The notes: generated by a model not told the origin, from the letters alone. A stretch of 32,000 nt of DNA from an uncultured Chloroflexia bacterium (GCA_963718915.1 CAVRAI010000003.1:840001-872000); one strand, 5' to 3'; shown: positions 7,020 through 26,378, counted from the first letter of the stretch. Translations and numbers: made by a program.

Positions 7020-7096
7020 GGCGCATTCGTCTAGTGGCCCAGGACGCCGCCCTCTCAAGGCGGAGATCACGGGTTCGAATCCCGTATGCGCTACCA
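7020..7096 (+). tRNA. tRNA-Glu (anticodon CUC)
   Basis: Acceptor GGCGCAT/ATGCGCT (G1-U72). D arm GTCT-AGTGGCCCA-GGAC. Anticodon stem CCGCC/GGCGG with loop CTCTCAA (CTC at 7054-7056). T arm ACGGG-TTCGAAT-CCCGT. Encoded CCA at 7094-7096. Strong resemblance to bacterial tRNA-Glu. Confidence 0.92.
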
Positions 7097-7099
7097 AAA

Positions 7100-7122
7100 G
7101 CCCCACCTGCTAACGGTGGGGC
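7100..7122 (+). terminator. hairpin downstream of tRNA-Glu (possible terminator)
   Basis: GCCCCACC (7100-7107), loop TGCTAAC, GGTGGGGC (7115-7122). The downstream T-run is weak. Confidence 0.3.
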
Positions 7123-7267
7123 GCTCTCATTTCCTGAGGGCTGGAGTCTCGCCACCCCTCTCTTTCATCATGGCGTCAATCGAGCAATCTTTCCATCGCC
7201 GCGGCGGCATCCTTCTGTATGCTTGGTGGGACGTGCGCGCGCCTGGCGCTTTGGCGCAGACACGGTA

Positions 7268-7459
7268 CTAGTAGCGGTCGCTGTAGCCTTTGCCGCCATT
7301 TTGATCGGCCTCGGCTGGAGTTACCCACCAGTGGTTCTGGAGGCGCCACGGCTCATTGCGCGCCAGCACACGATAATGCGCCTGGCGCCAGGTGAACGCG
7401 CTCGGCTGACCGTCCGCGGATGTCTCGACTGCTACTGGTATGTCGATGCGCCTGGGCAT
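7268..7459 (-). CDS. hypothetical small protein (63 aa)
   Basis: The ORF lacks low-complexity character (MPRRIDIPVAVETSADGQPSAFTWRQAHYRVLARNEPWRLQNHWW...). No family assigned with confidence. Confidence 0.4.
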   Translation of the reverse strand: MPRRIDIPVAVETSADGQPSAFTWRQAHYRVLARNEPWRLQNHWWVTPAEADQNGGKGYSDRY

Positions 7460-7622
7460 GCTCTCATAACCTCCTGAACACCTCCAGCATGGCGCAGCGC
7501 TAGCTCCTCGACAAGGCGTCTTGATGTGTCACCCGCAGACAAGAGCGGCGATCGACAGGCGCAAAAATGCCCCACCGACGACACGATGTGCCGATGGGAC
7601 GATTGGATCTCGGACTGCTCGA

Positions 7623-7946
7623 TCAATGCTCGTGATCGAAGTGGGCAATGGTGCGCGCTTGCACTTCGCCAAGGGATGGCTCGGCCATTACCCACACTTC
7701 GCGGTGCTGTTGGCGGGCGTACGTCTCGGCAAGCTGGAGCGCACGTGCGCGATCTTCCGTCACGTAGGTGCTGGTTGAGTTCCAGTCAGACACGCCCAGC
7801 TCCGCTGCTTCCGCTGGGCGGGTGACGTACTCGCCACCAGGCGACCCCTTAGGGGGGTAGGTGGTCTCGCCGATGCGAACGGTGTAGAGCGTGCGGTCAG
7901 ACTGCGGCCACTTTGGCTCCTTCGGCATACTGTCAGCCATGTGCAA
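7623..7946 (-). CDS. hypothetical protein (107 aa)
   Basis: ORF with balanced composition, on the same strand as 7268-7459. No recognisable motif. Confidence 0.45.
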   Translation of the reverse strand: MHMADSMPKEPKWPQSDRTLYTVRIGETTYPPKGSPGGEYVTRPAEAAELGVSDWNSTSTYVTEDRARALQLAETYARQQHREVWVMAEPSLGEVQARTIAHFDHEH

Positions 7947-8490
7947 CCCCTTTCACGGGTTGTTGAGCGTGTCGTAGAACAGCGGGTTCGTTACATGTAA
8001 CGAACTAGCTTCCCTCGCGTTACTCTGCGTCATCATCTCCCATCCCCTCCATCGGCTCAGGGAGCGCAGCGAAGACACACCAGTGGGGCGACGCGCTGCC
8101 ACGCTGGCCACCGCCTCAATGCAAGCGGAGTGCCTGCGCCACGGGGCGGACCCTGGCAGCATACCACCATTGCAAGCATCATCATGCATTGTGCCGCATG
8201 AGGGCGCTGCTCAATCGGGAGTATTGTGTCTTCCATAGCCCGGAAGCCACCGAGGGTCGCAGGGTCGGTAGCAGGGTCGGTGGCATGGCAAGCAGCAACG
8301 TACAGCGCGGGCTGAAGCGATTGCCGCCAAATCTGCGTGAGGTGATGGATCATGTAGCGGTCGGCGTCGAGCAGGTGCACGAGGGCACGCTGATGCCTGG
8401 GCAACTCTCGGCCATGGCGGCTGGCGCTACGGCGCTCGTCAAGTTGGTTGAGGCTGCTGTTCTCGCGCCGGGGATTGAGGCGTTGCGCCT

Positions 8491-8548
8491 CCAGGACGCC
8501 GCCCTCTCAAGGCGGAGATCACGGGTTCGAATCCTATATGCGCTACCA
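8491..8548 (+). pseudogene. orphan 3' portion of tRNA-Glu (att-like direct repeat of 7039-7096)
   Basis: 56/58 identical to 7039-7096, with a 44-bp perfect run. The two mismatches (CCCGT to CCTAT) break the T stem. There is no 5' half. Confidence 0.88.
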
Positions 8549-8556
8549 CAAATAGT

Positions 8557-8586
8557 CCTGACCATCATGGTTGGGGCTTTTGTTTT
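8557..8586 (+). terminator. rho-independent terminator-like hairpin after the tRNA-Glu remnant
   Basis: CCTGACC (8557-8563), loop ATCAT, GGTTGGG (8569-8575; 7 bp including two G-U), then GCTTTTGTTTT. Confidence 0.45.
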
Positions 8587-8620
8587 ACCAATGCCGACCC
8601 ATCGCCTGGAGCTGGTTCGA

Positions 8621-8680
8621 TCATGGTGAAAGGCTGACGGTGGGGCGCTCAGGAGGTGGGTAGCGACCGCAGCTCAACCC
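8621..8680. repeat. direct repeat, left copy (displaced 3' end of the oxidoreductase gene)
   Basis: Matches 17495-17558. Perfect 19-mer cggtggggcgctcaggagg (8638-8656 vs 17516-17534) plus 12-mer tagcgaccgcag. The minus strand reads ...VELRSLPTS* (stop at 8649-8651), versus ...IDLRSLHAS* in the intact gene. Confidence 0.8.
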
Positions 8681-8819
8681 CGAAGACCTCATCAGTCAGG
8701 ACGAACTGCTCGAAACGCAGAAGTACGACGAGTTCATTCCTCTGCATCTTCTCCGCAAGGGATTTGCGTCAGACAGACGCGATGTGGAGGGGGTGAAGCG
8801 CCTTGTCGCTACGTGGTAA
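8664..8819 (+). pseudogene. possible orphan C-terminal gene fragment (51 codons, no start codon)
   Basis: Open frame RPQLNPEDLISQDELLETQKYDEFIPLHLLRKGFASDRRDVEGVKRLVATW* begins directly after a stop at the repeat boundary. It has no ATG/GTG/TTG start. Confidence 0.25.
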
Positions 8820-9120
8820 AGCGCACAGCATCACAGATGTACGTAGAAGCTGGGGTGCAAGATTGTTAGTTTGATAGGAGTGCATCGTGTAGCCGGATTG
8901 TCCTGATTGCTGCATTTCCGCTTTTCGCCATCGTTAGGGTATTCATAGTGGTGTGCATTTCCCCCAAAGAGTTGCGCGTTGTCGTACGCACGTATACCCA
9001 CTTTTCGTGCTCAGTCAGGCTCTGCCGTGATACGTGCGCCATGCAAAAAGCGCGATAGGAAATTAGCATTCCGCGAGCATTCCTGCTGAGGAAACAGCAC
9101 CAGCAGAACTGGAGGGCAGC

Positions 9121-10371
9121 ATGGCGTCATTCACTGATCTCGTCGCCAGACATATCCAGCAGCGGCAACAGGAATTTCTGGCTACACTCTCTCCAACGCC
9201 ACACAATCACACGGAAACAATCCTGGCTGAGAGCGTGCAACGATTCTGGCATCCGCTTCCGCAAGACACCGAGGATACACAGACGGAGGCGCTTCCCTCC
9301 AGTTCGGCTGCGGTTGATGGCTCGCGGGCTACGCGGGCGCTGAACGCAGGTGCTGATTGGGTCATCGCGCAGGCATTGCTCCTGGGGACGGGTGGTCTTT
9401 GCCTCACCGCAGCGGATACTGTTCTGCTCAGGGGCGACGCCGAGCGCCCAGCAGTAGATCGCTGTGCGGCCTTGTTGATGCGTTCTCTGGAACTCGACCT
9501 AGCGCTCAAATATGCTCGGAGCGGTGAAGGTGACCTGCTCTTGCTCGATGGTTCCCTTTATGCCGAGTTGCCACATTTGCTCTATCCCCTGGCTGTGCGT
9601 GGTCAGGAACAATTGCCACTGCAGGTGTTACAACGCTACCTCGACCTCTTTGAGTGCTGCCAGGAACGTGGCATAACGCTTCTAGGGGTATCCAAGAGTG
9701 CGCGGTCGAAAGCGCTTGCGCAGGCTATACTTCTCACAAGCCACACAGACACGGTTGAGGGAGATGCAAGCGCTGATGTGGCGCATGTTTCGTTACCGCA
9801 GGCGCCACGACGCGTCGCTCATGACTTCGATGAGATGATGCAACAGGCGCCAACCGATGCAGAGTTACTCCACCGTTGGACATCAGGCGCTGGGTTCAGC
9901 GATCCCATCCTGCTCGGCACCGCATCGTTTGGGCATCGACGCGAGCGAGTTCAGACAGATCCACGGCTACTCGCCGAACAGTTCCGTGGAGGTTCACTGT
10001 CTGAGACCGAGTGTCGCGCCATCTTGGAGCGATTGCGTACTGCTCCCGCCATCGGCACGTTCTACATCCGTCTTGCCCCTGGCGACGATGTGCTTCGGAT
10101 TGACGCGCCAGCCGACATCTATGGAAGAGCAGACAACCATCTGCTCGACGTCCCCCACGAGATGTTGCCATACCAGGATGCAGAGGCTCTTGTCAGATAT
10201 CTGCGTCGCGGATATGGTGGCCCCAATGTCTACAACGCCGCGCTCTATATCGTGGATCGCGAAGTCCGTCTGCACGCACAGACGGTCGATCACCTGTATC
10301 TTTCGCTCTTGCGACGGCAGCTTGACATTCCGATTCGATTTGACCGCTCGACGCTGCGATTTGTTCAGTAG
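9121..10371 (+). CDS. nurA: NurA-like 5'-3' nuclease
   Basis: NurA-type motifs in order: AVDGSRA, SLELDLAL, LLLLDGSLY, LLGVSKSARSK, YNAALYIVDREVR. GGAGGG lies 5 nt upstream of the ATG. Confidence 0.75.
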   Translation: MASFTDLVARHIQQRQQEFLATLSPTPHNHTETILAESVQRFWHPLPQDTEDTQTEALPSSSAAVDGSRATRALNAGADWVIAQALLLGTGGLCLTAADTVLLRGDAERPAVDRCAALLMRSLELDLALKYARSGEGDLLLLDGSLYAELPHLLYPLAVRGQEQLPLQVLQRYLDLFECCQERGITLLGVSKSARSKALAQAILLTSHTDTVEGDASADVAHVSLPQAPRRVAHDFDEMMQQAPTDAELLHRWTSGAGFSDPILLGTASFGHRRERVQTDPRLLAEQFRGGSLSETECRAILERLRTAPAIGTFYIRLAPGDDVLRIDAPADIYGRADNHLLDVPHEMLPYQDAEALVRYLRRGYGGPNVYNAALYIVDREVRLHAQTVDHLYLSLLRRQLDIPIRFDRSTLRFVQ

Positions 10372-10392
10372 CAGCTCAGCAGCAGCTCAGCA
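10371..10392. repeat. 11-bp x2 tandem repeat at the nurA stop
   Basis: GCAGCTCAGCA GCAGCTCAGCA, starting in the last base of the TAG stop codon. Confidence 0.85.
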
Positions 10393-10412
10393 GAGACGCT
10401 TGAGAACGCCCC

Positions 10413-10451
10413 GATGGAGGACAGTGATGGAGGACAGTGATGGAGGACAGT
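10413..10451. repeat. 13-bp x3 tandem repeat, each unit carrying GGAGGA plus ATG
   Basis: GATGGAGGACAGT x3, followed by a partial fourth unit (ATGGAG). ATGs at 10414, 10427 and 10440 fall in three different frames. Confidence 0.9.
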
Positions 10452-12155
10452 ATGGAGCGCCAACTATCTTCTCTCTATGGTCTGGAAGCAGGATTCATTG
10501 TAGGTGAGACCAATCCACTGGAGTTCACCTTCGTCAGCAGTCGCGAGATGCTCCCTCCCCGTCTGGAATATTTGATTGTTCCGGGCGTCGAAGAGCGTAC
10601 TGCGTTATCTGGTACAGAAGCACAACCAAAACGAGTGGATGTACTAGCACAGGTGACTGAGGTAGGCATCGACTCCGCCGTTCTCTCCGAACGCCTGACG
10701 TATGACGAGGCGCTGGCAATCCTGCGAGGAGCCTACGCGCCACCGCCTAAGATGTACGGACGCGCGCGTGTCATTGGCTATCTCGCGGGCCAGACAGTGC
10801 GCGTACCCCGTTGCGCGGCGAGTCCAGGGAGCACTGTCTATGTCGCGCCGGATGCCTTTCTGCAACGTTTCTTCAGCCAAGAGATCAATGCGGGCATCGA
10901 CCTGGGAACGCTCATCAATCGCCCTGAAGTGCCTGTTCTCCTTGACCCAAACGGCCTGCGTCGTCATCTGGCCATCATTGCGCAGACGGGGGCAGGCAAA
11001 TCGTATCTGGCGGGAAAACTCTTCGAGAGCCTCCTCCAATTGGGAGCGACCATTTTCGTCTTTGATCCTAACTCTGACTACGTTCAGTTGCGAAAGGTGG
11101 CCAGACAAGAGCAGCAGCCGTATGACGCCGCAGAGAGAACCGCATTTGCCGATGACATTGCGATCTACCGAATTCCAGGGATCCAGGGTAGACGTTTTCC
11201 CGATGCGATAATAGGGCCAACCAGCGATTTTACCGTCCGTTTCTCCGATCTCGACGCAGATGAAATCAGTGTACTGGTTGGCATATCCGAACGCGCAACC
11301 AACTTGCGTGGAGCCGTCAACCGGGCATGCGCCCAACTGAGGCAACGCAACATTGACTATCGTCCGGCGGAACTGATCGCAGAACTACAGGGCCGCAACA
11401 ACGAACCTCCGACCGAGGAAGAAGACAAATCCGCAGATGACAATCCGCTTGGGCAGGAAGATAGGCAGACGGCATACAAGGCTGCGCGCTATATCGAGCG
11501 ATTGAAAGACCTCGCGGTGTGGGGGTATCAGGACGTGGATATCGAGCCGTTGCTAGCCCCACAGCATCTGACCGTGTTCGACCTCGCTGGAGCAGATAAG
11601 ATGGTGGCCGCCTACGCCGCCGAACGCACCCTGCGTGAGATTTGGCAGCGCGCACTCAGGGGGAAGTTGAATCACCCCGTCTTCATTGTGCTGGAAGAGG
11701 CGCACAACCTCATCCCAGCGGCTGGCAATACCCGCGCCAGTCGTATCATCAATACCATCGCTGCCGAGGGCCGAAAGTTTCGCGTCTTCCTGACACTCAT
11801 CACCCAGAGACCCAGTAAGGTCAATCCAGATACACTCTCGCAATGCGGCAGCCAGATTATTATGCAACTCACCAATCCCGATGACCAGCGCGCTGTGCAG
11901 AAAGCATCAGAGGCTATCTCTGCTGAACTGCTAGCGGATCTTCCGGGATTGAATAAAGGCGAGGCTATTGTACTCGGCCAGTTGACACGCATCCCGGTGA
12001 TGCTCTCTGTCTCTGGGCGAGCATCAGCCGAAGGTGGAAGCGATATAGATGTCGTGCAGGAACTCAAACGCGCGGCACTCGCCAGGGGTACTCAACGCGC
12101 GGCCCAGGAGATGCGCGGGCGAGGGGCAGTCGCCCGTCAACGTGAGGAATGGTGA
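10437..12155 (+). CDS. herA: HerA/FtsK-class hexameric ATPase (DUF87/HerA-like)
   Basis: N-terminal barrel-like region. Walker A IIAQTGAGKSY (about 10981-11010). Walker B VFIVLEEAHNLIP. LITQRPSKVNPDTLSQCGSQIIMQLTNPDD. In-frame starts at GTG 10437, ATG 10440 and ATG 10452. Confidence 0.88.
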   Translation: MMEDSMERQLSSLYGLEAGFIVGETNPLEFTFVSSREMLPPRLEYLIVPGVEERTALSGTEAQPKRVDVLAQVTEVGIDSAVLSERLTYDEALAILRGAYAPPPKMYGRARVIGYLAGQTVRVPRCAASPGSTVYVAPDAFLQRFFSQEINAGIDLGTLINRPEVPVLLDPNGLRRHLAIIAQTGAGKSYLAGKLFESLLQLGATIFVFDPNSDYVQLRKVARQEQQPYDAAERTAFADDIAIYRIPGIQGRRFPDAIIGPTSDFTVRFSDLDADEISVLVGISERATNLRGAVNRACAQLRQRNIDYRPAELIAELQGRNNEPPTEEEDKSADDNPLGQEDRQTAYKAARYIERLKDLAVWGYQDVDIEPLLAPQHLTVFDLAGADKMVAAYAAERTLREIWQRALRGKLNHPVFIVLEEAHNLIPAAGNTRASRIINTIAAEGRKFRVFLTLITQRPSKVNPDTLSQCGSQIIMQLTNPDDQRAVQKASEAISAELLADLPGLNKGEAIVLGQLTRIPVMLSVSGRASAEGGSDIDVVQELKRAALARGTQRAAQEMRGRGAVARQREEW

Positions 12156-12217
12156 CGGTTAGGAGTCGACCGAGCGCTGGCGAGATGACTTGTTTGTGAT
12201 GAGAGGGATGGAGCAGG

Positions 12218-13204
12218 ATGGGTGATCTGGATAGCCGCGAAAATCCTGGTGAGACTCGGCAACGTGAGCGGGAACATGAAGATATGTGGACGAATGATAT
12301 TTTGCGGGTGGTGGTGACGGCCGACAACCATCTTTCTGCATTTACACCTAAACTCTCTCCACAACGACTGAGCGAACGTCGGCAACGGCTGCGCAGGGCA
12401 TTCGCGCGGGTGGTGGATGAGGCTATTGCCCGGCAGGCCCATCTGTTCATCCAGGCAGGCGATCTTTTCGACAGCATCGAGCCACGCAATCTGGAGCGCG
12501 AATTCGTCGCCGCACAGCTTGCGCGCCTGCATTCGGCTGGTATTCAGACATTCGGCATCAGTGGCAATCATGATACGCCACGCCAGCGTACTGAGCATGG
12601 TGGTTTCGCTCCTCAGGGTATCTATGCCGAACTTGGGGGTATTCACTACTTCCCTGAATCGGACTGCATCAAGCCCGTTCTGGTTGAGGCGGCACGTATG
12701 CGCGTAGCGGTGGCAGGTCTGAGTTGTAATCCAGGTGCGGCGCCCGGAGGCGATCCGCTCGATGATGTGGTGACAGAAGACCCGGATGGCAACCTGGCGC
12801 GTGCAGATGTTGGTATCCTGATACTGCATGCGGCTATCGAGGGTCATGGCTTTCCCAGCGAAGATGAGTTATTCGTCCGACGAGCGAGCATCGAGCGTAT
12901 CACAGGCTTCAAGCTGATCCTTGCGGGACATGTTCATGCCTACGCGCGATTCGACGTAGCCAACAAGTCCGTGGTAGTGTGTGGCCCTACGGCGCGTATG
13001 AGCTTTGGCGAGGCGGAGGACAAAACGGGCTTTGCTTATCTGGAGCTTCGCCACGATGGACGCTTCCATTCCGAGCATGTTGCCATTCCCTCTCAGCCAC
13101 GGCATATTGTGACAATCCAAACGTCCGAACTCTGGCCCCAACAACAGCAGCAGATTCTGACACCATCAGATCGCATGACGATCACCGACTGCCGACGCTG
13201 CTGA
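12218..13204 (+). CDS. Mre11/SbcD-family metallophosphoesterase nuclease domain (ends prematurely relative to family architecture)
   Basis: All phosphoesterase motifs are present: VVTADNHL, QAGDLFD, GISGNHD, ILILHAAIEG, LAGHVHAY. GGAG lies 5 nt upstream of ATG 12218. Stop at 13202-13204 after a Q-rich stretch. Confidence 0.85.
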   Translation: MGDLDSRENPGETRQREREHEDMWTNDILRVVVTADNHLSAFTPKLSPQRLSERRQRLRRAFARVVDEAIARQAHLFIQAGDLFDSIEPRNLEREFVAAQLARLHSAGIQTFGISGNHDTPRQRTEHGGFAPQGIYAELGGIHYFPESDCIKPVLVEAARMRVAVAGLSCNPGAAPGGDPLDDVVTEDPDGNLARADVGILILHAAIEGHGFPSEDELFVRRASIERITGFKLILAGHVHAYARFDVANKSVVVCGPTARMSFGEAEDKTGFAYLELRHDGRFHSEHVAIPSQPRHIVTIQTSELWPQQQQQILTPSDRMTITDCRRC

Positions 13205-13358
13205 TGTATCTGGCATATCTGCCGCAGTAGCGCCATCCGATGCGCCATCAGCAACCTATCCGCCGGATGCTGTCCAGGACATCACAGCGCTTCCAGGCTC
13301 TGATTCTACACGTCCTGCCGCAGACACTGCGGAAGCTGAGGATACCGTACACCGAGCA

Positions 13359-13724
13359 ATGCAGGTGATTCTCGATCGGATCAGGCCGTACTGTACCCCT
13401 GACGCGATGGTACGGCTCTGCCTCACAGGTCCGATTTCTCGCGAGCGCTACCGCGCACTTGATCTGCGCAAAGTTTGGCTTATCGCGCAACATCAGGCGT
13501 TCTCGTTTGAACTCGATGAGTCTGGCCTCTTTCTGGTCGAGCAGGGATCGCAGGAGCAGGTGGTTCGTGGTGAGCGCATCGCGCCGCGTGAGATGCTGGA
13601 GCAGGTCATGGGAGCCTGGATGGATCGTGCCAAGACAACTGCTGAACGCACGCTTTTGGCAAAGACTCGCGAACGAGTTCTCACATTATACGAGCAGTTA
13701 ACGGGGGGGGAAGCGACGCGATGA
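13359..13724 (+). CDS. Mre11 C-terminal (capping/Rad50-binding-like) domain encoded as a separate ORF in another frame
   Basis: VILDRIRPYCTPDAMVRLCLTGPISRERYRALDL... resembles the region that follows the nuclease core in single-chain Mre11/SbcD homologues. This frame is open from 13179. Its stop overlaps the next gene's start (ATGA at 13721-13724). Confidence 0.55.
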   Translation: MQVILDRIRPYCTPDAMVRLCLTGPISRERYRALDLRKVWLIAQHQAFSFELDESGLFLVEQGSQEQVVRGERIAPREMLEQVMGAWMDRAKTTAERTLLAKTRERVLTLYEQLTGGEATR

Positions 13725-16700
13725 TTACGCTCCGACATCTGCATGTGGAGAACTTTAAGGGGCTGGATAGCGTAGACCTCTCCTTCCCTGAACAGGGCAG
13801 CATCCTCATCGAAGGCCATAACGAAGCAGGAAAGTCAACCCTTTTCGAGGCAGTCTATGTCGCACTCTATGGTGAGCCTTTAGTCGGCGAGGACAATCGC
13901 CCACGTCTTGAGGAGGTCATCAAGCATGGTCAGCCGCAGGCGCTGGTCGAATTGACCTTCGCCGTCAGCACCGAGCAACTCACGATACGCCGTGTCTTGA
14001 GACGGGAACAACCTCAACAGGCGCGGCTTACTATCCGCCAACCCAATGGTCATGAGGAGACTGTCAATCGTCCCACCGCCGTCAATCGACGCATCCTGCA
14101 AGAGTTGAACAATTTGGACGGCGATAATCTGCGCAACTCGTGCTTCGTCGAGCAGAAGGAACTGGGACGGCTGGAGGACATGAATCCCAGCAGGCGTGAG
14201 CAGGCAATCCAAAGCCTCCTGGGACTTGAGCGATTGACAAAGCTCTCAGACCAGTTCAAGTTCAAGCGCGAGCAGGAACGCGAGCTAGATCATGCACGGC
14301 GTCTACTCGAACTGGCCTACGCGCAACAGGATGTACGGGTGCTGGTGGTGGAAGAGCAGGCGGCTGCTGAACGTCTCGATGCCACGAGGATTGCCGCGCA
14401 ACTCACAGAATGCGCTGCGCTTGAAGAACAGCAGACGGCTCTCCGGGAGCAGTCGCAGGCAAATGTATTCCGTGAGACCGATCTACGCGGGCGGCTGGAG
14501 TATGCTGGCCGCATACGCGGCCAGGTTTCCAGGTGCAATGTGGTGCAGCAGCAACTGGAAAGAGCGACTGCTCAAAGGGAAACTGTAGAGCGGTTGAAGG
14601 GGAAGCTGGCAGAGATGGATGCCATCGAGCGCCAGGCAATACCCGAAACGAGAACACAACTCGACCGAACCTTGACGGCGCTCAAGTTGGTGGTTGACGC
14701 CGAAGAAAAGCGCATGGCAGTGCATGATGCTACTGGCATTGAGCAAGAAGCGCTACGTGCCGTTGCAGAGCTTGAACGGGCTAAAGAGGTCGTGCGTCAA
14801 CGGGCAGAAACGCTGGATATATCACGTGCGCGAGCGAATCAACACCGCAAGGAAGCAGCTTCGTCGCGCGAACAAAACCAGCGACAACTCGCGATACTGA
14901 GCGCTCGACATAATCAGTTGAGCCATATGCTTGAGTTGGTTATGGCATGGGAGCATAAACGCGACGCATTAGAGGCAGTGCGTCAGCAGATTCGTGATGC
15001 AGAGAAGAATGCGCAAAGGCTCCTGGAGCTTCGCGCTACCCTACTGCAGCGAGAAGAGACAGCCCACCAAGCGGTAGGTAGAGCGGAACAAGCGGAACGT
15101 AAGCGTCAACAGGCGGAGTCGCACCGGCGACAATCAGAGGGATATGAAGCGCTGCACGAGTGGATACGCCTGAAGGAGGTTGAGGCCTCGCTCTCCGGCT
15201 TTGCGCAGGATCGCACCACAATGGAAGCGGAGCGCCAACAGGCCACCGCTGCGTATGCGAGCGCCCAGGCGCGAGCGCGCGGGTTATTGTACCAAACAGC
15301 GGCCACTATGCTGCTGGCAATGATTGCTCTCGTAGCCGGAGCTATTCTATCCCCCTGGCTATTGGTCATTGGAGCTATCCTTGGAGTAGTGGCTATCTTC
15401 CGTGGTGGCGGCTATTGGCGTTCTCGCGTTGCGACGACAGCGGGTAAACAGGCAGTCGAGAGCGTGGCGAACAAGCTTCGCGAGCTCACAATGCGCTATC
15501 AGGCGGCGGTGCATGCTGGGGGTGATCCTGCCCAGCTCGGTCAGCGTGAGCGTGCCCTTACCGCAGCAGGATTCGCAGTCCCCTCGTCGCTTGATGCTGC
15601 GCGTAATCTACTGGCCAGGCTGTCTGCGGAAGGGATCATAGACTATCAGCGTGCAAGGGTGTCAGCAGATGAAGCGGTGACGACACTGGCCCGATTGAAG
15701 GCCGAGGCAGAGCGAGCACAAGGCGATGTCGATCAGACCAGGGTGGCGCTGCACAACCTTGAAGAGCAGGGTGATGCGTCTGTAATGCTGCGTGAACTCC
15801 ACATACGTGAGACCCAGGAGAGCAAAGCAGCCGAAGCTGCTGAGGCAACGGCTCGCGAGGCTACGAAAGGGGAATTGTCATGGCCGACGAATCAAGCTCA
15901 GATCGACATGGCGGCTGCGGCATGTCAGGCGGAGCAACAAACCATTCAGCGCACAATGGCTGATGCGGAAGCCCAGACAAGGCGCATAGAGCATGACGAT
16001 GAAGATGCTATCGCGCAAGCACACCAAGTACTTAGAACCGCTGAGGACGCTGTTGCGGTATTGCAGATGCCTGATCCTCAGGCAATGCTTACGGATGCGC
16101 AGGCAAATCTTGTCCATGCCGAAGAACTCGCGCGCGCAGCTGAAACGCAGTCGCAGTTGGCTGTTCGGGGCATGGGATTATCGCCCGAACGGACGGCAGT
16201 CGAGGCGGCGCGTGGGCGAGTAGAGGAGCGTCTGCGGAACCTGGAAAGCCAACTGACAACCCGGCCAGCGGTTGAAACTGCGTTCACTAACGCACAAACG
16301 ACATATGCAGACATGCTGCAGAAAGCGAGCAATGCGCTCCTGGCAATCGTGGAATCAGCCCGTTCACTTGCAATCGCATCGCTTCAAGGCGTCGCGGCGC
16401 TTGAAGATCAGGCCGCGCGTGAGCGTCCGTTGGCCGCCAGGCTAGACGAGGTGTGTGCTGCCCTCGTATCTGCGCTCACCGAGCTTCATGAGGCAGATGC
16501 ACAGACTGAGCTAGAGCGCCTCCTGCATGAGAAGGGGACACTGAACCAGCGCCTACAGTCTATGGAGAGTCAACTTGCCTCTATTGAGGGGGACATCCAG
16601 AGTATCTTGGCGGCGCGTCACCTCCCTACGCCTACCCAATATACTGCTACGGCATTGGCTGCTGTGTGGCCGTTGATCGGAACAGCCTCGGCTCACGAGC

Positions 16701-17440
16701 TTGATCGTATGCAACTGGAACTTGAGCAAGTTCGCAACCGCCACTTCGCAGCGCGTGATCGGGAGCATCGCCTGACCGAAATACTTGGTGATCCAGGGGT
16801 GGAACTCGAGGTCGAGGCGTGTGGCCATCGCGTCCAAGAACTCGATGAGGAGCGAGCCATCTGCCAGCACGCCATCGGCATAATCCAGGAGACTCGTGAT
16901 CGCATTGCTCGGCAGGTTCTGCCGACCACAGAACGCAATATGGAATTGTTGCTTCGTGAACTTACCATGCACCGCTACTGGAGCGTTCGATTGACACCAC
17001 CTGCCAGCGAAGAGAGGCAGCTCAACCAGCTTGATTACCGCATTCGTGTATGGGATCAGACAGCCCAGCGCTATGTTGCCAAGAATCTCTTCTCTGGAGG
17101 TACACGAGATCAATGTTCCCTGGCATTGCGGCTCGCCTTTGCTCTGGCGACTCTCCCACAGGAGCTAGGCATTGCGCCTGGTTTCATTTTTCTGGATGAG
17201 CCATTGAGCGCCTTCGATGCCCAGCGTGCGCAAGCACTTGTGAATCTGCTCACGACAGGAATCATTGCTCAGCAGTTCGCCCAGGTCGTGGTCATCTCGC
17301 ATCAGCATGCGTTTGATCGCAACGCATTTCAGTATCATATTCGTATGGATAGTGGCCAAGTCGTCGAGAGCGATCTCCCAGTGATGCCCAGCCACTCTTT
17401 GCAACGCACGCCTATGAAAGCCTCTAGTGCGCGTGCGTGA
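13721..17440 (+). CDS. Rad50/SbcC-like SMC-type ATPase with central hydrophobic hairpin
   Basis: Walker A GHNEAGKSTLFEAV. Q-loop FVEQKELG. More than 800 aa of heptad-like E/Q/R/A-rich sequence. Signature FSGGTRDQCSLALRLA. Walker B FIFLDEPLSAFD. H-loop VVISHQH. Hydrophobic block TAATMLLAMIALVAGAILSPWLLVIGAILGVVAIF at residues ~526-560. Confidence 0.9.
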   Translation: MITLRHLHVENFKGLDSVDLSFPEQGSILIEGHNEAGKSTLFEAVYVALYGEPLVGEDNRPRLEEVIKHGQPQALVELTFAVSTEQLTIRRVLRREQPQQARLTIRQPNGHEETVNRPTAVNRRILQELNNLDGDNLRNSCFVEQKELGRLEDMNPSRREQAIQSLLGLERLTKLSDQFKFKREQERELDHARRLLELAYAQQDVRVLVVEEQAAAERLDATRIAAQLTECAALEEQQTALREQSQANVFRETDLRGRLEYAGRIRGQVSRCNVVQQQLERATAQRETVERLKGKLAEMDAIERQAIPETRTQLDRTLTALKLVVDAEEKRMAVHDATGIEQEALRAVAELERAKEVVRQRAETLDISRARANQHRKEAASSREQNQRQLAILSARHNQLSHMLELVMAWEHKRDALEAVRQQIRDAEKNAQRLLELRATLLQREETAHQAVGRAEQAERKRQQAESHRRQSEGYEALHEWIRLKEVEASLSGFAQDRTTMEAERQQATAAYASAQARARGLLYQTAATMLLAMIALVAGAILSPWLLVIGAILGVVAIFRGGGYWRSRVATTAGKQAVESVANKLRELTMRYQAAVHAGGDPAQLGQRERALTAAGFAVPSSLDAARNLLARLSAEGIIDYQRARVSADEAVTTLARLKAEAERAQGDVDQTRVALHNLEEQGDASVMLRELHIRETQESKAAEAAEATAREATKGELSWPTNQAQIDMAAAACQAEQQTIQRTMADAEAQTRRIEHDDEDAIAQAHQVLRTAEDAVAVLQMPDPQAMLTDAQANLVHAEELARAAETQSQLAVRGMGLSPERTAVEAARGRVEERLRNLESQLTTRPAVETAFTNAQTTYADMLQKASNALLAIVESARSLAIASLQGVAALEDQAARERPLAARLDEVCAALVSALTELHEADAQTELERLLHEKGTLNQRLQSMESQLASIEGDIQSILAARHLPTPTQYTATALAAVWPLIGTASAHELDRMQLELEQVRNRHFAARDREHRLTEILGDPGVELEVEACGHRVQELDEERAICQHAIGIIQETRDRIARQVLPTTERNMELLLRELTMHRYWSVRLTPPASEERQLNQLDYRIRVWDQTAQRYVAKNLFSGGTRDQCSLALRLAFALATLPQELGIAPGFIFLDEPLSAFDAQRAQALVNLLTTGIIAQQFAQVVVISHQHAFDRNAFQYHIRMDSGQVVESDLPVMPSHSLQRTPMKASSARA

Positions 17441-17494
17441 TGCCGTCGTATCAGTGTTGCGCCCTTCCCTACCCATCGTCTGTAGCCGATACGG

Positions 17495-17558
17495 TCATGG
17501 TGGCGGAAGGCTACGCGGTGGGGCGCTCAGGAGGCGTGTAGCGACCGCAGGTCAATCC
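17495..17558. repeat. direct repeat, right copy (functional 3' end of the oxidoreductase gene plus flank)
   Basis: See 8621-8680. Includes the stop codon at 17527-17529. Confidence 0.8.
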
Positions 17559-18786
17559 GCTCGTCGGCCAGGTCGGCGTCCGAGACGCGAACGCGCGCGC
17601 GAATCAGTTCCTGGCATGCGTGTAGCTCGGAGTCGGCCTCGATTTCTGGATCGCCGCCACGGTTCAGCCCGAACACCGCCTGGATGATGCCCTGCGTCAG
17701 GTAGAAGACCAGGAACTTCCGGCTCTCGAAGGTCCCACGAAGCACAATCTTTTCCCAGGTTCGGGCGAACCCTACGTACTCGATGTTGTGCTCAAATTGA
17801 TCCGACCAGAAGCTGTAGATATAGTCATAGGCCTGGGGATCGCCCAGCACGGCGCGGGCGACGGCGCGGCCCTGGCGTTCGGCGTTGTTGTAGTGCTCCA
17901 CCCGCAGACGCCCGAAGACCGGATGCTGGATATTGGCCACATCGCCCGCCGCGAAGACATCGGGCATGTTCGTCCGGCACTGCGCGTCGACGAGAATGCC
18001 GTTATTCAGGGCAATCGCACTCCCCGTGAGCGCATCCACGTCTGGCGCGATGCCGATGCCCACGACCACCAGATCGCATTCCAGCCGCGCGCCTGTCCCG
18101 GTCAGCACGCGCTCCACCCGGCCGTTGCCCTCGATGCCGGTCACGTGCTCCTGTGTGACCAGTCTCACCCCGTGCTCACGATGAATCGCCGCCAGCACCG
18201 AAGCGACCTCAGGGCCAAGCACTTTGACGAGCGGCGCTGCCCCAGGGAGCACGACGGTCACGTCGAGACCCATCTGCCGGAGCGAGGCCGCAACCTCGGC
18301 GCCGATGAATCCCATGCCGACGACGACCACTCGCGCGCCGGGATGGGCCGCCTGACGAATCGCCTCGCACTCCGCGACCGTGCGCAGCTGATAGACGCCT
18401 GGCAAGGACGCTCCTGGCACGTCAAAACGCTGATTCTTGCCACCTGTGCAGAGGATCAGCCTGTCATAGCGCATGGCATCGCCGCTCGCAAGGTGGAGCT
18501 GCCTGAGGTCGGTGTCGATGCGTTCCACGCTGACCCCGGTGCGGAACTCGATATCGTGCGCGCCGTACCAGTCCGCCGGCCTGACATACCAGGCGCTGAG
18601 ATCTTCCTCGCCGCGCAGATAGGTCTTGGAGAGCGGTGGTCGGCCAAATGGGATGCCCGGCTCCCTGCCCAGCAGGACGATGCGGCCACGCCACCCCTCT
18701 TCGCGCAGAGTTACCGCTGCGTTGCCACCCGCCAGACCCGCGCCGAGAATCACGATGGTCTGCTCACTCCTTGCGTCTGCGTTCAT
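17527..18786 (-). CDS. FAD-dependent pyridine nucleotide-disulfide oxidoreductase (ferredoxin-reductase type)
   Basis: TIVILGAGLAGG (FAD GxGxxG), VVVVGMGFIGAEVA (NAD(P) GxGxxG), AAGDVA, and a C-terminal reductase domain. ATG at 18786 is preceded by AAAGGAG and is preferred over the ORF-track start at 18885. Confidence 0.85.
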   Translation of the reverse strand: MNADARSEQTIVILGAGLAGGNAAVTLREEGWRGRIVLLGREPGIPFGRPPLSKTYLRGEEDLSAWYVRPADWYGAHDIEFRTGVSVERIDTDLRQLHLASGDAMRYDRLILCTGGKNQRFDVPGASLPGVYQLRTVAECEAIRQAAHPGARVVVVGMGFIGAEVAASLRQMGLDVTVVLPGAAPLVKVLGPEVASVLAAIHREHGVRLVTQEHVTGIEGNGRVERVLTGTGARLECDLVVVGIGIAPDVDALTGSAIALNNGILVDAQCRTNMPDVFAAGDVANIQHPVFGRLRVEHYNNAERQGRAVARAVLGDPQAYDYIYSFWSDQFEHNIEYVGFARTWEKIVLRGTFESRKFLVFYLTQGIIQAVFGLNRGGDPEIEADSELHACQELIRARVRVSDADLADERIDLRSLHAS

Positions 18787-18979
18787 GGCGGCGCTCCTTT
18801 CGAGTCGAGAAAACGAATGGTCTGGTGTCTGCATCGCGCGAGACTCTCCTTCACTATTCCACGTTGCATGCCACGGATACTCCACAGCAAAGGAGTCTCC
18901 CCCGCACGCATGCTATACTCTACACAGGAAATGGAGAACAGCCTGACAACGGCCTGAAGGCGCCCGAAGTGAGTGTGAT

Positions 18980-19915: not shown

Positions 19916-20039
19916 TACATAATCCACAGTGCAGGGTTGCCCACAATCAGCGGTTTGCCTGGAAGAAAAACAACCCTGGCGGTCAAACCAGCGTAGAGAA
20001 TACCAAACGGCCTTGGATATCAGGGTAAGAGGGTCGCTT

Positions 20040-22616
20040 GTGATTCGAATAGTGAGCAAACAACGATCACGGCTTGGCATGACAGCACGACGGCTTCTTG
20101 CTGTTATGTCACTCGGCATTCTTGTAGTCACTCTATCTCCGCTCGCTTCTCTCTCTGTCCTTGCGCAGCCAGCCAGTTCCATCGCGCCGACAGCGTCCGC
20201 GCCTGCTGGCCATGTCACGATCCTCGTCCTCGATATGTCCGGCTCGATGGGCAGCAACGATCCGAATGGATTGCGCTGCTCGGCGGCTAACGCCTATATC
20301 GATTTGAGCGGGCCGGGCGATTTCGTCGGCGTCGTCGGTCTGGATAACACCGGCCCGACGGGCGGCGCGCATAACTTCCCGCTGGCGCAGGTATGGGCCG
20401 AGCCGAGTGAAATGGCGACGGTTGCCGCGCGCGCGCAACTGCATAACACCATCGCTACGAAGTCCCATAACTGCAAGCCCGACTCCGCGACCCCCACCTA
20501 CGACGCCTTGCAACGAGCGCTGACGATGCTCACGGCATCCACCGCGCAGACGCATCTGCCCGGCTCCGTCATCCTGCTGACCGATGGCGTGCCCGCGCCA
20601 CAACAGAACGAGCAGATCAGCGCGATCCAGACCGACCTCGTGCCGCAGTTCAAGCAGCGCGACTTTCCGGTTGATACGGTGGCCCTTGGCGCGGACGGCA
20701 CGCTGCGGTCGTTCCTGAGCGACCTCGCCAACGCGACGGGCGGCGCGTACTATGACGATGGACACGGCGTGGTCAGTGGCGTCTCGCCCTTGAACATCGC
20801 GCCCTTCTTTGTCAGCATCTTCGCCCAGCGCAATGGCCGCACGGTGACGCATGACATCCCGCCGACAGCGCTTTCCGGCGGCACGGTCTCGCGGAACTTC
20901 TCTATCGGCGCCTTTGTCTCGCATCTCGATGTCGTCGCCGTCAAAGACTCACCTGCTACGCGCGTGACGCTGACCGCGCCCAACGGCCAAGTCTTGCCGC
21001 CAGCGGTCGCCGGAACATTTATCTCCAGCGACCCTCATTACGTCATCTTCAGTGTGGATCATCCGCAGAGTGGGGCATGGCAACTGAATGTGACTGGCTC
21101 CGGGCGCTTCCTGATGGATAGCCTCAAGCTCTCGACCCTCGGCCTGAGCATCCTCGCGCCCGCCTCGGACACGCCAGAGCCGCTGGGCCAGCCGCTGACG
21201 GTGAGCGCGACGCTCAACGACAATGGCACGCCGATCACTGGCAGCCGCTATAGCATGAACGGAACGATTGCCTACAGCGGCGGCACGGGTAGCTATACGC
21301 AGGAGTTCGTGCTGGACGACCACGCCAGCCCGGGTACCTATGCCGCGCAGATTACGATTCCGCCCAGCGCGCCCGCTGGAACCTATAACGTCACGATCAA
21401 CGCGCGCGAGGTGAGCGATACCATCGCCAGCGCCAATCGTCTGGTCCGCATCGAACTCTTCCCATCGCCGCTGCTCGTCGCTCCCTCCACCGGCAAGCTC
21501 ACCACCGATACCGTCGCCACGAGCGAGACCCTGTGGGATCCCGCACTGCGCGCGATCTATAGCGTGCCGTTTGGGGTGCTGACCTGGCTCAGTGGCTGGC
21601 CGTTGCAGGGGCATCCGGTGGTGGACGGCGCGCGGCTCGACGGCGCGGTTCAGCTCGACGGCAAACCGTATGCTAACGCCAGCGTCAGCGGCTTGGCCAC
21701 ACGCGATGGCTCGAAGACGGCGATCCCGCTGCATATCGCGCCTGGCGAGAACGGGCGCTTCACGGCGGCCTTTACGCCCAGCGGTGACGGCCAGTACGCG
21801 CTGACGTTCAGGACGCTGGGCAGTTTCAAGGATTCGCATGGCGACCTCGGCACGACCACCCGCACGGTGGCGCTCAAGACGCAGCCCGCCTCGCTCGCGC
21901 AGGAGGCCATCGCCTGGGCCATTACGTTGCTATATCTCGCCATCCTCGTGCTGATTGTGCTGCTGATCCGCTATGCCATCTCGCAGAAGCCGTTCGGACG
22001 ATTGGTCTCCAACGACGGCGGAGGCGGCGAGGAGTTCTCCCGCGCACGTCGCGGGCTATTTGGGCTGCTGCATCCGGGCACGGTGCTCTCGCAGCAGATG
22101 GGGCTTGACCCCGGCCTGATCTTCAGCTTCCGGCGCGGCAACCGCATCACCGTCGAGGGCAACGGCGGCGGTCGGCGGGCCTACCGGCTTGGCGGCGAGC
22201 CGCTCCCCACCAGCCCCGTCCCTGCCGCGGAGTCGCTGCTGACGACCAACGAGGGGATGTCCTATACGGTGAGCGCGTCGAGTAGCGATGAGTTCCTGGA
22301 CGAAGAAGAGGGCACGCGGCGCGGCGGACTGCTGCGCCGCAAATCGGCCAGCGACGACTACTTTGACGATGACGACGCTCGTGGGCGGCGCGGTCTGTTC
22401 GGGCGGCGGTCGCGTGGCGACGACTACGATGACGAGGGGAATCGCGGCAGCCGACGTAAATCGCGGCGCGCGCGGGACGACTACGACGATATGGACGACG
22501 ACGGCCCCTCGCGCTCGCGCGGTGGTTCGCGTGGCCGTTCGCATGGCGATGATTTTGACGACTATTCTTCAGGCGGGCGATCCAGGAAATCGCGGCGGCG
22601 CGATGATGACTATTGA
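20040..22616 (+). CDS. exported von Willebrand factor A (vWA) domain protein with a single C-terminal TM helix and a charged disordered cytoplasmic tail
   Basis: GTG 20040 is preceded by AAGAGGG; ATG 20079 is an alternative start. Signal-peptide-like MTARRLLAVMSLGILVVTLSPLASLSVLAQP. MIDAS motif VLDMSGSMGS, TPTYDAL, ILLTDG. Long beta-rich ectodomain. TM helix AIAWAITLLYLAILVLIVLLIRYAI. R/D-rich tail. Confidence 0.85.
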   Translation: MIRIVSKQRSRLGMTARRLLAVMSLGILVVTLSPLASLSVLAQPASSIAPTASAPAGHVTILVLDMSGSMGSNDPNGLRCSAANAYIDLSGPGDFVGVVGLDNTGPTGGAHNFPLAQVWAEPSEMATVAARAQLHNTIATKSHNCKPDSATPTYDALQRALTMLTASTAQTHLPGSVILLTDGVPAPQQNEQISAIQTDLVPQFKQRDFPVDTVALGADGTLRSFLSDLANATGGAYYDDGHGVVSGVSPLNIAPFFVSIFAQRNGRTVTHDIPPTALSGGTVSRNFSIGAFVSHLDVVAVKDSPATRVTLTAPNGQVLPPAVAGTFISSDPHYVIFSVDHPQSGAWQLNVTGSGRFLMDSLKLSTLGLSILAPASDTPEPLGQPLTVSATLNDNGTPITGSRYSMNGTIAYSGGTGSYTQEFVLDDHASPGTYAAQITIPPSAPAGTYNVTINAREVSDTIASANRLVRIELFPSPLLVAPSTGKLTTDTVATSETLWDPALRAIYSVPFGVLTWLSGWPLQGHPVVDGARLDGAVQLDGKPYANASVSGLATRDGSKTAIPLHIAPGENGRFTAAFTPSGDGQYALTFRTLGSFKDSHGDLGTTTRTVALKTQPASLAQEAIAWAITLLYLAILVLIVLLIRYAISQKPFGRLVSNDGGGGEEFSRARRGLFGLLHPGTVLSQQMGLDPGLIFSFRRGNRITVEGNGGGRRAYRLGGEPLPTSPVPAAESLLTTNEGMSYTVSASSSDEFLDEEEGTRRGGLLRRKSASDDYFDDDDARGRRGLFGRRSRGDDYDDEGNRGSRRKSRRARDDYDDMDDDGPSRSRGGSRGRSHGDDFDDYSSGGRSRKSRRRDDDY

Positions 22617-22688
22617 CTGCCAGTTTGCGCGATAATCGCCTCGCTGGCAAACGGCCAGGCGAGGAGCAGCTTATAGATATGTAGACAA

Positions 22689-25442: not shown

Positions 25443-26096
25443 CGCGGGCGTGATGTAGTTTCACGTATTACACAGAACAGCGCGCATCGTGGCGGGCGCG
25501 GCAGGCCGTAGCATAAATGCTACGGCGAATGGGCAGAGCGGCGCGTGGGGGCCGGGAAATTCGCCGGGGCCTTTGGGCTTCCGGCTTGCTCGCCTAGCAC
25601 GCGGTCTAGCACGCGGTTCGGAGTTAATTCGTACAGTTCATCATGCGCCAGGGCCGCCAGCCAATCCCGCCATTGGCGCCGAAACCGAAAATACCCATAG
25701 TACGTACATACGAGGGGCGTGATTCCGTCTCCCTCATGGAACGAAGTATTTTAGTAGATGTAGTAGGCGGCGTTTTTACTCTGTAACAGGGGCAAGGTTC
25801 GTGGTTGGGCGGGTTCGCGGCATGAATGCCGCGGCTAATCCCGTTCGATGAGCATTCCGCTACGTGGCAAGAGGGTGAATTGCCGCAGGATTAGCTGTAG
25901 TCTTCAGGCTACGGCGCGGTACGAGCAGACGAACGCTGCGATTCATCCCAGGGGTCATACCGGATCGCGGTCTGGAGAGCCTGCGCAGGCAGGCTTTGCG
26001 GCGTAGCCCTTAGGCGCGGCTTTAGCCGCCAGCCGCCCTACGGCGGGGATTCATACCGAATAGCAGGCAAAGACAGGCATAGGCAAGGAGCAGAGC
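25443..26096. other. 654-bp non-coding spacer rich in short perfect hairpins, palindromes and a 12-bp x2 tandem repeat
   Basis: GCCGTAGCA-TAAA-TGCTACGGC (25505-25526). CTAGCACGCGGT x2 (25594-25617). CGCGGCAT/ATGCCGCG (25816-25833). GCTAATCC...GGATTAGC pairing across about 45 nt. GCCTGCGCAGGC palindrome. GCGGC-TTTA-GCCGC. No convincing ORF. Confidence 0.6.
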
Positions 26097-26378
26097 GTGG
26101 CAACCTCGACGCCGATTCGCTTCCGACCAACGATCGTCCTCTGTGTGGGCGACCGTGGCCGCGAGGTGGGCGCGCAACTCTCCATGCTCTTGCCAGGGCT
26201 GGATGGCGCGCGTCAGGCGGGTATCGCGCTGCTCACGGTCGATGACGACGCGACGATGACGGCGCGTTGCTCGGCGCCTGGTACGATCCGGGCCTCAGCG
26301 CCGTCGCCAGCCTACCCGGCCCCCTACCCGACGATACGCCCATCAGCATTGATCGCCGCCCGTTACCAACCCTCGTGA
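26097..26378 (+). CDS. probable true 5' end of the downstream tubulin-like paralogue, in a different frame (only the first ~55 codons look genuine)
   Basis: GTG 26097 has AAGGAG 6 nt upstream. PTIVLCVGDRGREVGAQLSMLL...AGIALLTVDDD aligns with LNIFLGSTPAYSALEMMRQLVHL...RVALVFLDIDS of the upstream paralogue. Confidence 0.4.
   Translation: MATSTPIRFRPTIVLCVGDRGREVGAQLSMLLPGLDGARQAGIALLTVDDDATMTARCSAPGTIRASAPSPAYPAPYPTIRPSALIAARYQPS

Follow-up and report, generated by a model that had tools for sequence, protein, structure and literature searches.

The 32,000-nucleotide (nt) stretch of DNA from an uncultured Chloroflexia bacterium analysed here (GCA_963718915.1, CAVRAI010000003.1:840001-872000; this whole stretch is called the window, and positions are counted from its first letter) contains a cassette of four genes, nurA, herA, mre11 and a rad50-like gene, which probably encodes a membrane-tethered two-module machine that recognises and resects DNA ends and belongs to a distinct lineage found in bacteria and archaea. 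We give this reading a probability of roughly 60%. The main value of the cassette lies in its Rad50-like protein, which belongs to a large lineage, present in both domains, that is devoid of the zinc hook and has a predicted membrane hairpin. Labels such as L001 designate relative loci and those such as P0153 relative proteins. The cassette comprises the following elements:

9121-10371, + strand: nurA, 416 amino acids (aa), RNase-H-fold 5'-3' nuclease; Pfam NurA (PF09376), 9.1e-18
10437-12155, + strand: herA, 572 aa counted from a GTG, hexameric translocase of the FtsK-HerA class; Pfam DUF87, 5.9e-32
12218-13204, + strand: 5' part of mre11, 328 aa, nuclease domain; Pfam Metallophos, 2.8e-13
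13184-13724, + strand: 3' part of mre11, in a shifted frame; the open reading frame (ORF) 13359-13724 (121 aa) corresponds to the C-terminal domain
13721-17440, + strand: rad50-like gene, 1239 aa, ABC-ATPase head and long coiled coil, without CxxC hook
15281-15400, + strand: residues 521-560 of the Rad50-like protein, a predicted transmembrane hairpin, GLLYQTAATMLLAMIALVAGAILSPWLLVIGAILGVVAIF

The four genes form a tight array, with gaps of 65 and 62 nt and a final ATGA overlap between mre11 and rad50 that is found in relatives as well as in the window. Since their order is kept in more than 24 independent loci, a chance array can be ruled out; nurA-herA-mre11-rad50 is one operon. A scan for promoters and terminators yielded counts near the shuffle expectation and was uninformative. 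Catalytic and ATPase motifs are legible in the translations, and nurA, herA and rad50 are full length, the true start of herA probably being the ATG at 10452, as in L001. NurA scores 65 bits against PF09376 (cut-off 21) and weakly matches the S. solfataricus NurA structure 2ygk (1e-3). HerA has both Walker A and Walker B motifs and matches the NCBIfam model helicase_HerA (5.6e-56, 190 bits, under the equivalog cut-off of 970) as well as two structures, PDB 9x1l (6e-44; labelled only "DNA helicase") and S. solfataricus HerA 4d2i (4e-33). The five phosphoesterase motifs of Mre11 can be read (I-V: DNH, GDLFD, GNHD, H, and GHVH), the NCBIfam SbcD and Mre11 models match it at ~1e-14, and its nearest structures are the Mre11 proteins of T. 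maritima and P. furiosus. The Rad50-like protein matches Pfam AAA_23 (9e-17), SMC_N and SbcC_Walker_B together with NCBIfam Rad50 (3.1e-23), with M. jannaschii and T. maritima Rad50 as the nearest structures of its head. All the NCBIfam matches of the cassette proteins are far under the equivalog cut-offs, so these proteins are relatives, not orthologues, of the modelled ones.

Much of this had been anticipated by an earlier reading of the same DNA (the original prediction), whose array, coordinates, gaps, ATGA overlap and 1239-aa Rad50-like gene we found again in the ORFs, and whose quoted motifs (AVDGS, LLLLDGSLY and GVSKS in NurA; GAGKSY, VLEEAHNLIP and ITQRPSKV in HerA) are present in the translations. 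Its four homology calls were borne out by profile hidden Markov models, with matches to NurA, DUF87/HerA, Metallophos and AAA_23/SMC_N/SbcC_Walker_B, and so, for HerA, was its description of the set as archaeal-type, the window HerA being 39-43% identical to the HerA of canonical archaeal operons. Where it counted four or five genes, there are four, the supposed fifth being the 3' end of mre11; and where it reported all Mre11 motifs as intact, the motifs are so but the gene as read is frameshifted at position 13183. It missed this frameshift, the absence of the zinc hook and the predicted transmembrane hairpin. What it observed is confirmed with that one correction, and its interpretation holds in part.

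The apex of the Rad50-like protein carries the argument. No CxxC motif occurs in its whole 1239 aa, and residues 521-566 form a strongly hydrophobic stretch (Kyte-Doolittle 19-mer maximum of 2.53) with an uncharged 40-residue core flanked by RAR and RGGGYWRSR, the two halves of this hairpin having additive insertion free energies of -0.8 and +1.5 kcal/mol. A central hydrophobic segment is present in all the cassette Rad50 ORFs, three archaeal ones included (28/28), and in 57 of the 58 relatives retrieved from databases for the Dictyoglomota member, and a central CxxC in none of them (0/28 and 0/58); overall, 85 of 86 checked members of the lineage are hook-less with a hydrophobic apex segment. 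The hook-type controls scored show the reverse pattern (21/21). The canonical archaeal loci, which came from the same HerA-profile scan as the cassette loci and have Rad50 proteins of ~905-927 aa, show CP[TIV]C in 14/14 and the hydrophobic segment in 0/14; the eight weakest database matches have CP[TLV]C (8/8) and no hydrophobic segment (0/8), and the Bacillaceae cassettes, checked separately, have a central CxxC (2/2) and no such segment (0/2). The Pfam zinc hook domain of Rad50 (PF04423) follows the same division, being detected in none of the 58 database relatives and in six of those eight weakest, hook-type matches.

The physical character of the segment was compared over 74 hairpin-type sequences. 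The core without charged residues measures 38.5 residues at the median, and its 12-residue flanks contain more K/R (3.3 and 3.1, against a background of 2.0) and less D/E (1.3 and 1.0, against 2.2), while the core sequence itself is unconserved, its hydrophobic character alone being kept. Insertion free energies, calculated as a simple additive sum over 19-mers on the Hessa 2005 scale, have a median for the best 19-mer of -2.7 kcal/mol in hairpin-type versus +12.9 kcal/mol in hook-type proteins, and a second 19-mer, ~21 residues away from the first, has a median of +0.2 kcal/mol in the hairpin type. In the AlphaFold2 model of the relative P0153 (mean predicted local distance difference test score, pLDDT, of 81), which consists of a head plus long helices and has the Rad50 of the C. 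thermophilum MRN complex as its best fold match, a long helix extends to residue 398 and is followed by a turn (399-402) and a second long helix. This 4-residue turn lies mid-way in the hydrophobic stretch 382-419, with block-mean pLDDT values of 83-89 over residues 361-440. The apex is thus predicted from its sequence to be a hairpin of two hydrophobic helices with basic flanks that spans the membrane and leaves both arms of the coiled coil on the cytoplasmic side, a structure that these properties fit without proving insertion. In Ktedonobacteria, the hairpin is off-centre (521-560 of 1239) and the C-terminal arm of the coiled coil exceeds the N-terminal one by ~180 residues; in the window protein the region concerned is residues ~570-1090 (nt 15430-16990), and shorter homologues (790-1040 aa) have a nearly central hairpin.

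Mre11 differs along with the apex. In phmmer comparisons, the window Mre11 scores 111-240 bits against those of hairpin-type loci outside Ktedonobacteria versus 24-38 bits against those of hook-type archaeal loci, and the corresponding difference is much smaller for HerA and NurA. Mre11 thus co-varies with the type of Rad50, and the Mre11-Rad50 module forms a lineage of its own, coupled to a HerA-NurA module that is similar in both kinds. We tentatively propose, without regarding it as the likelier outcome, that these proteins represent a third architectural class of Rad50, with a transmembrane hairpin as apex, beside the zinc-hook Rad50/SbcC and the hinge-type SMCs; such a class would always have its own Mre11 lineage and usually an archaeal-type HerA-NurA pair, and would form a DNA-end-processing machine of the membrane acting on broken chromosomes held there or on entering DNA. 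Its extension across Chloroflexota, Dictyoglomota, Caldisericota, Krumholzibacteria, Nitrospirota, Bathyarchaeia, Halobacteriota and one Asgard metagenome-assembled genome (MAG) is put forward with the same reserve.

The closest known system is the archaeal operon of Sulfolobus and Pyrococcus, also present in Bathyarchaeia, Archaeoglobus and Methanomicrobia (L062-L083). It has the same four families, the same nurA-herA-mre11-rad50 order in L062-L083, translationally coupled mre11 and rad50, and the 39-43% identical HerA mentioned above. Of the features of this archaeal-type operon, the window has NurA, HerA and a Rad50 head split by a long antiparallel coiled coil, and lacks the zinc hook. The archaeal Rad50 is shorter (~905-927 aa), with a central CP[TIV]C and no hydrophobic segment, whereas the window protein has a central hydrophobic hairpin, no CxxC and a Mre11 partner of a separate lineage, the Ktedonobacteria Rad50 having in addition ~200 extra aa in the C-terminal coiled-coil arm. 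Reviews describe Rad50 as dimerising through the zinc hook, which they treat as its defining and essential apex (PMC7752040, PMC10586767). The one precedent retrieved for another kind of apex is SbcE (YhaN) of B. subtilis, an SMC-like protein without CxxC whose central domain is hydrophobic and insoluble; it gathers in foci at the poles of competent cells and plays a role in double-strand-break repair (PMC2811018). The SbcE/SbcF (YhaN/YhaO) pair resembles the window proteins in combining an SbcC-like ATPase with a hydrophobic centre and no CxxC with an upstream SbcD-like nuclease partner, but no NurA or HerA partner has been reported for it (PMC2811018), and the central domain of SbcE is described as conserved with an invariant proline, whereas the window lineage keeps hydrophobic character only. 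The link in sequence between the window Rad50-like protein and SbcE is a weak Pfam AAA_27 match (25.9 bits), the comparison being otherwise one of descriptions, and no database source names any relative of the Rad50-like protein YhaN.

Other bacterial systems share part of this composition. The NurA-HerA pairs of Deinococcus and Thermus are likewise bacterial nuclease-translocase pairs that resect DNA ends (PMC9960219); those of Deinococcus have <20% identity to the archaeal ones and no described linkage with Mre11-Rad50 (PMC9960219), whereas the window pair is archaeal-type and encoded in one operon with mre11 and rad50. The same four-gene order occurs in the Bacillaceae (Pontibacillus sp. 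ALD_SL1, NZ_CP062975.1, and Priestia megaterium pFDU301A), the genes being labelled in the record NurA, ATP-binding protein, metallophosphoesterase and SMC family ATPase. These cassettes differ from that of the window in their hook-type Rad50 (CPIC and CPVC at mid-length) and in their HerA, which scores only 33-44 bits to the window one. Their herA-mre11-rad50 genes (L170, 1869-8478, in Pontibacillus; L169, 1016-6615, in Priestia) lie on replicons of ~0.9-1.1 Mb labelled as plasmids, with an annotated nurA preceding them in L170. Our full-text literature search retrieved no description of a Rad50 with transmembrane helices or of a nurA-herA-mre11-rad50 operon in Chloroflexota, and public labels for members of the lineage are generic ("SMC family ATPase", "AAA family ATPase" and "exonuclease SbcC"). 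As far as searched, the hook-less membrane-hairpin Rad50 lineage is apparently undescribed.

The distribution of the cassette was studied by a HerA-profile scan in which a single genome stood for each GTDB species; it provided 80 loci, whose ORFs were called and searched with the window proteins. The closest HerA relatives are from Ktedonobacteria, the group to which this genome belongs (95%, 90%, and then 65-77% identity), followed by those of other Chloroflexota (50-60%). For the HerA and the NurA of the window, no identical sequence was on record. The more than 24 loci with the order nurA-herA-mre11-rad50 belong to at least six phyla and include archaeal contigs: this order was seen in Ktedonobacteria, other Chloroflexota, Dictyoglomota, Krumholzibacteria, unclassified bacteria, Bathyarchaeia and one Asgard MAG, and in Caldisericota the cassette is present with nurA displaced. 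In a neighbour-joining HerA tree, the Ktedonobacteria group together, beside other Chloroflexota, and the canonical archaeal HerAs cluster apart, which is how the phylogeny suggested by the original prediction turned out; the tree roughly follows taxonomy. The wide spread, the conserved internal order and this near-taxonomic tree indicate that the cassette is old and widespread, and the earlier view of bacterial occurrences as sporadic does not stand, given that the order is conserved over Ktedonobacteria, other Chloroflexota and several bacterial phyla. The three archaeal hairpin-type contigs are flanked by genes for archaeal LeuRS, archaeal DnaG, archaeal-type TyrRS, deoxyhypusine synthase and a proteasome assembly chaperone, and these archaeal genes rule out MAG contamination. 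Housekeeping genes are the neighbours in all three and also in L086 and L167. A scan of viral contigs with the HerA profile found no relatives, and tblastn against plasmids found distant HerAs only (<=35% identity) and no close relative. A HerA sub-clade from Chloroflexota/Thermoflexus (L015-L020, L023-L025, L047 and L048), 47-48% identical to the window HerA, has no nurA, mre11 or rad50 detected within 10 kb and shows a conserved ORF of 560-580 aa ~1 kb downstream, which may correspond to a different HerA partnership; and the HerA relatives P0090 and P0091 (758-759 aa, 55% identical) bear an additional Pfam domain, PF19960.

By extension from the archaeal system that has been characterised, the end-sensing clamp and nuclease would be made up of Mre11 together with the Rad50-like ATPase, and HerA, as a hexameric double-stranded DNA translocase, would carry out with the 5'-3' nuclease NurA the long-range resection that leaves 3' single strands for RecA. 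The Rad50-like hairpin would tether this complex to the cell membrane, where it would probably be dimerised. Repair, defence and DNA-uptake roles are not mutually exclusive for such a machine. Several points weigh against our reading. Membrane insertion in the lineage is deduced from sequence properties, the free energies are simple additive sums on values following the Hessa 2005 scale, and the hydrophobic apex could instead be a dimerisation element of a soluble protein. The frameshift of mre11 means that the window copy may be non-working. Defence-type genes lie beside the cassette in about half of the Ktedonobacteria loci sampled, which also fits a defence function. These genomes may also carry canonical SbcCD, RecBCD or AddAB, and the cassette is not necessarily "the" repair system. 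Finally, the ABC-ATPase classification of Krishnan et al. 2020, which lies outside the literature search, may already describe the clade.

The surroundings of the cassette in the window bear on both its history and its function, and include these landmarks:

7020-7096, + strand: tRNA-Glu(CTC), found with ARAGORN, beside the insert region
8491-8551, + strand: duplicate of the 3' 61 nt of the tRNA-Glu (copy of 7039-7099, 95% identical), found by repeat search
8638-8680, + strand: left bounding direct repeat, 43 nt, 91% identical to the right copy
8664-8819, + strand: remnant of the helicase gene of Shango, sngC, reduced to its final 51 codons and stop; phmmer against the L001 helicase, 1.6e-22
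17516-17558, + strand: right bounding direct repeat, overlapping the ferredoxin-reductase-like gene at its true 3' end
17527-18885, - strand: ferredoxin-reductase-like gene, stop at 17527-17529

The bounding repeats extend to ~95 nt at lower identity. The left one repeats, in diverged form, the reductase gene's 3' end together with the sequence immediately downstream, and both copies begin matching the host relative L087 at one and the same L087 coordinate, 7390. Between them, GC content is 0.571, versus 0.604 and 0.639 outside, and GC content at third codon positions (GC3) is 0.56-0.62 in the cassette genes, as compared with 0.66-0.79 in the host genes of the window and 0.67-0.78 in the genes of L087. 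In L001 the cassette has a GC3 of 0.56-0.59 and the adjoining Shango genes one of 0.63-0.68. Window positions 8674-17413 are 91% identical to L001 by blastn, with unrelated flanks, and the contigs of L001 and L002 open within this tRNA-Glu, of which they keep the final 30 and 28 nt, respectively. Over the reductase gene, the identity of L087 to the window is 88.7%; the similarity ends at 17492, with unrelated housekeeping genes beyond. We looked for an empty site, with the tRNA-Glu adjoining the reductase gene, among relatives fetched with the reductase; the closest, L087 and L142 (~88% nt identity), have no tRNA there and have other genes past the reductase, so that the comparison shows where synteny breaks, at the edge of the insert, but does not provide a clean empty site. 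Of the features of tRNA islands, a duplicated tRNA 3' end, direct repeats and a GC3 shift are present, and an integrase was not found, region 7100-9100 containing neither that nor any other mobility gene.

The GC3 shift, the bounding repeats, the identity to L001 with unrelated flanks, the sngC remnant and the break with L087 together argue that segment 8680-17490 was imported. This cassette copy would have come fairly recently from a Ktedonobacterium with ~57% GC and would have been inserted between the tRNA-Glu and the ferredoxin-reductase gene, bringing along the tail of the Shango helicase gene. The repeat-bounded, lower-GC insert of the original prediction is therefore real, as is its acquisition in this genome, the relatives carrying the cassette beside Shango; of the further idea that it is an acquired repair or restriction module rather than core housekeeping, the import and the Shango neighbours speak for it and the housekeeping neighbours of several loci against it. 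The tRNA duplicate, 1.45 kb downstream of the tRNA, bounds a segment (7100-8490) with a GC content of 0.62 and no recognisable genes, its ORFs having no Pfam match. Just past the tRNA (7109-7126) there is also a fragment, 18 nt long, of the reductase-end repeat, and this region resembles a scar left by a previous insertion at that tRNA. Farther downstream (19929-28762), three large same-strand genes encode a VWA-domain protein of 895 aa, a Tubulin_2-family protein of 917 aa and a protein of 831 aa without Pfam match, possibly a bacterial tubulin-like module unrelated to the cassette.

The helicase of L001 is SngC according to PADLOC (3e-253), and complete Shango systems lie directly upstream of nurA in L001, L002, L004 and L084 (SngA 4e-68, SngB 5e-187, SngC 3e-253). 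They are found in one Ktedonobacteria sub-clade on the same strand as nurA (590-7641 in L001, 1233-8380 in L084 and 257-7783 in L004), SngA bearing TerB_N and TerB_C domains, and Shango and the cassette may be cooperating there or be merely neighbours. One alternative to our reading is that the cassette serves mainly against phages or plasmids and travels in defence islands, here with Shango, its membrane-tethered Mre11-Rad50 capturing the ends of incoming linear DNA and its HerA-NurA destroying it. The company of Shango, as a full system in the four relatives and as the sngC remnant in the window, agrees with this, as do the genes found nearby in other loci: a UvrD-like helicase and a TerB_N protein in L003, NACHT and TGT genes and an ATPase similar to those of type IV secretion systems (T4SS) in L085, and type I restriction-modification genes and an AAA_15/DUF3696 ATPase in L168. 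Moreover, the copy in the window was acquired horizontally and inserted at a tRNA, and a complex tethered to the membrane would sit at the point of entry of foreign DNA. We nonetheless regard a mainly defensive function as unlikely. PADLOC v2 matched no defined system, leaving NurA and both Mre11 parts without match, and returned generic matches (HerA, 2.8e-43; LmuB, 4.7e-22; plus mad3 and mad8) in the absence of the partner effectors; membership in Lamassu or MADS was ruled out, these being generic ATPase matches only. The likeness to SIR2-HerA, DUF4297-HerA and Lamassu (LmuB) is confined to the HerA-class and Rad50-like ATPases, as the effectors SIR2, DUF4297 and LmuA are absent here and those systems include neither NurA nor Mre11. 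The window HerA has better scores with repair-type models and structures than with antiphage ones; several loci, including all three archaeal hairpin-type ones, are set among housekeeping genes; the HerA tree roughly tracks taxonomy, unlike those of typical defence genes; relatives are absent from viral contigs and close ones from plasmids; and the cassette has been retained here while Shango has been lost. Such a scan had been proposed by the original prediction, and the cassette genes match no known defence system in it.

HerA is a member of the FtsK-HerA class of DNA pumps, which, like the predicted membrane location of the hairpin-type Rad50, would suit a machine that processes DNA at the membrane during uptake or cell-to-cell transfer, making or trimming single-stranded DNA in the way proposed for SbcE at the competence pole and for Ted-linked HerA/Rad50. 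SbcE, with its hydrophobic central domain and no CxxC, not only forms polar foci in competent cells but also affects transformation (PMC2811018), and HerA-like and rad50 genes co-localise with the archaeal Ted genes for DNA import (PMC9905601). Such a role seems nevertheless quite improbable for the cassette: competence, pilus or type IV secretion genes do not consistently adjoin it in the loci examined, the T4SS-like ATPase being near it in L085 only, and the likeness to SbcE is one of description, not of sequence comparison.

The last question concerns the state of mre11. Aligned with the 93%-identical gene of L001, window positions 12218-13724 contain one extra C at 13183, which leads to the stop at 13204. 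The ORF 13359-13724, whose stop overlaps the rad50 start (ATGA), has no match in Pfam and is collinear with residues 382-502 of the 502-aa L001 Mre11. In relatives, mre11 is undivided, encodes 441-502 aa and shares its last 4 nt with rad50. On the basis of the L001 alignment and these single-gene relatives, a separate fifth gene can be ruled out in favour of the 3' end of mre11. The ratios of nonsynonymous to synonymous substitution rates (dN/dS) between the window and L001 are 0.155 for nurA, 0.163 for herA and 0.32 for rad50, and for mre11 0.162 before and 0.182 after the shift. Purifying selection is therefore still visible on both mre11 halves, and such low values on either side imply that the lesion is very recent or an assembly error. 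Cassette genes are also split in two other loci, the Rad50-like gene being divided in L058 (13113-16866; 935 + 335 aa) and in L085 (8726-16870; 513 + 740 aa), where nurA is shortened too. These splits are probably indel errors, and they make such an error a live possibility for the window mre11.

This frameshift could also be seen as the mark of a cassette that, in this genome, is the decaying and non-functional relic of an imported island from which Shango has been deleted. It parts the Mre11 nuclease domain from the C-terminal portion, the sngC remnant lies immediately upstream of the cassette, and no mobile-element genes are left. We think there is little chance that this is so, since nurA, herA and rad50 are full length, dN/dS is ~0.15-0.18 on either side of the frameshift, which points to a very recent lesion or an assembly error, and the split genes of the L058 and L085 assemblies suggest that indel errors affect some assemblies.

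The reading of the cassette as a membrane-tethered end-resecting machine has consequences beyond this genome. If the lineage has exchanged the hook for a membrane hairpin and still retains Mre11, HerA and NurA, it offers a direct test of the purpose of the Rad50 apex, be it dimerisation, tethering or localisation. If this is true, the little-studied observation made on SbcE would reach many phyla and the archaea. It also raises the possibility that end resection takes place at the membrane, which bears on how cells may tell their own broken DNA from incoming foreign DNA.

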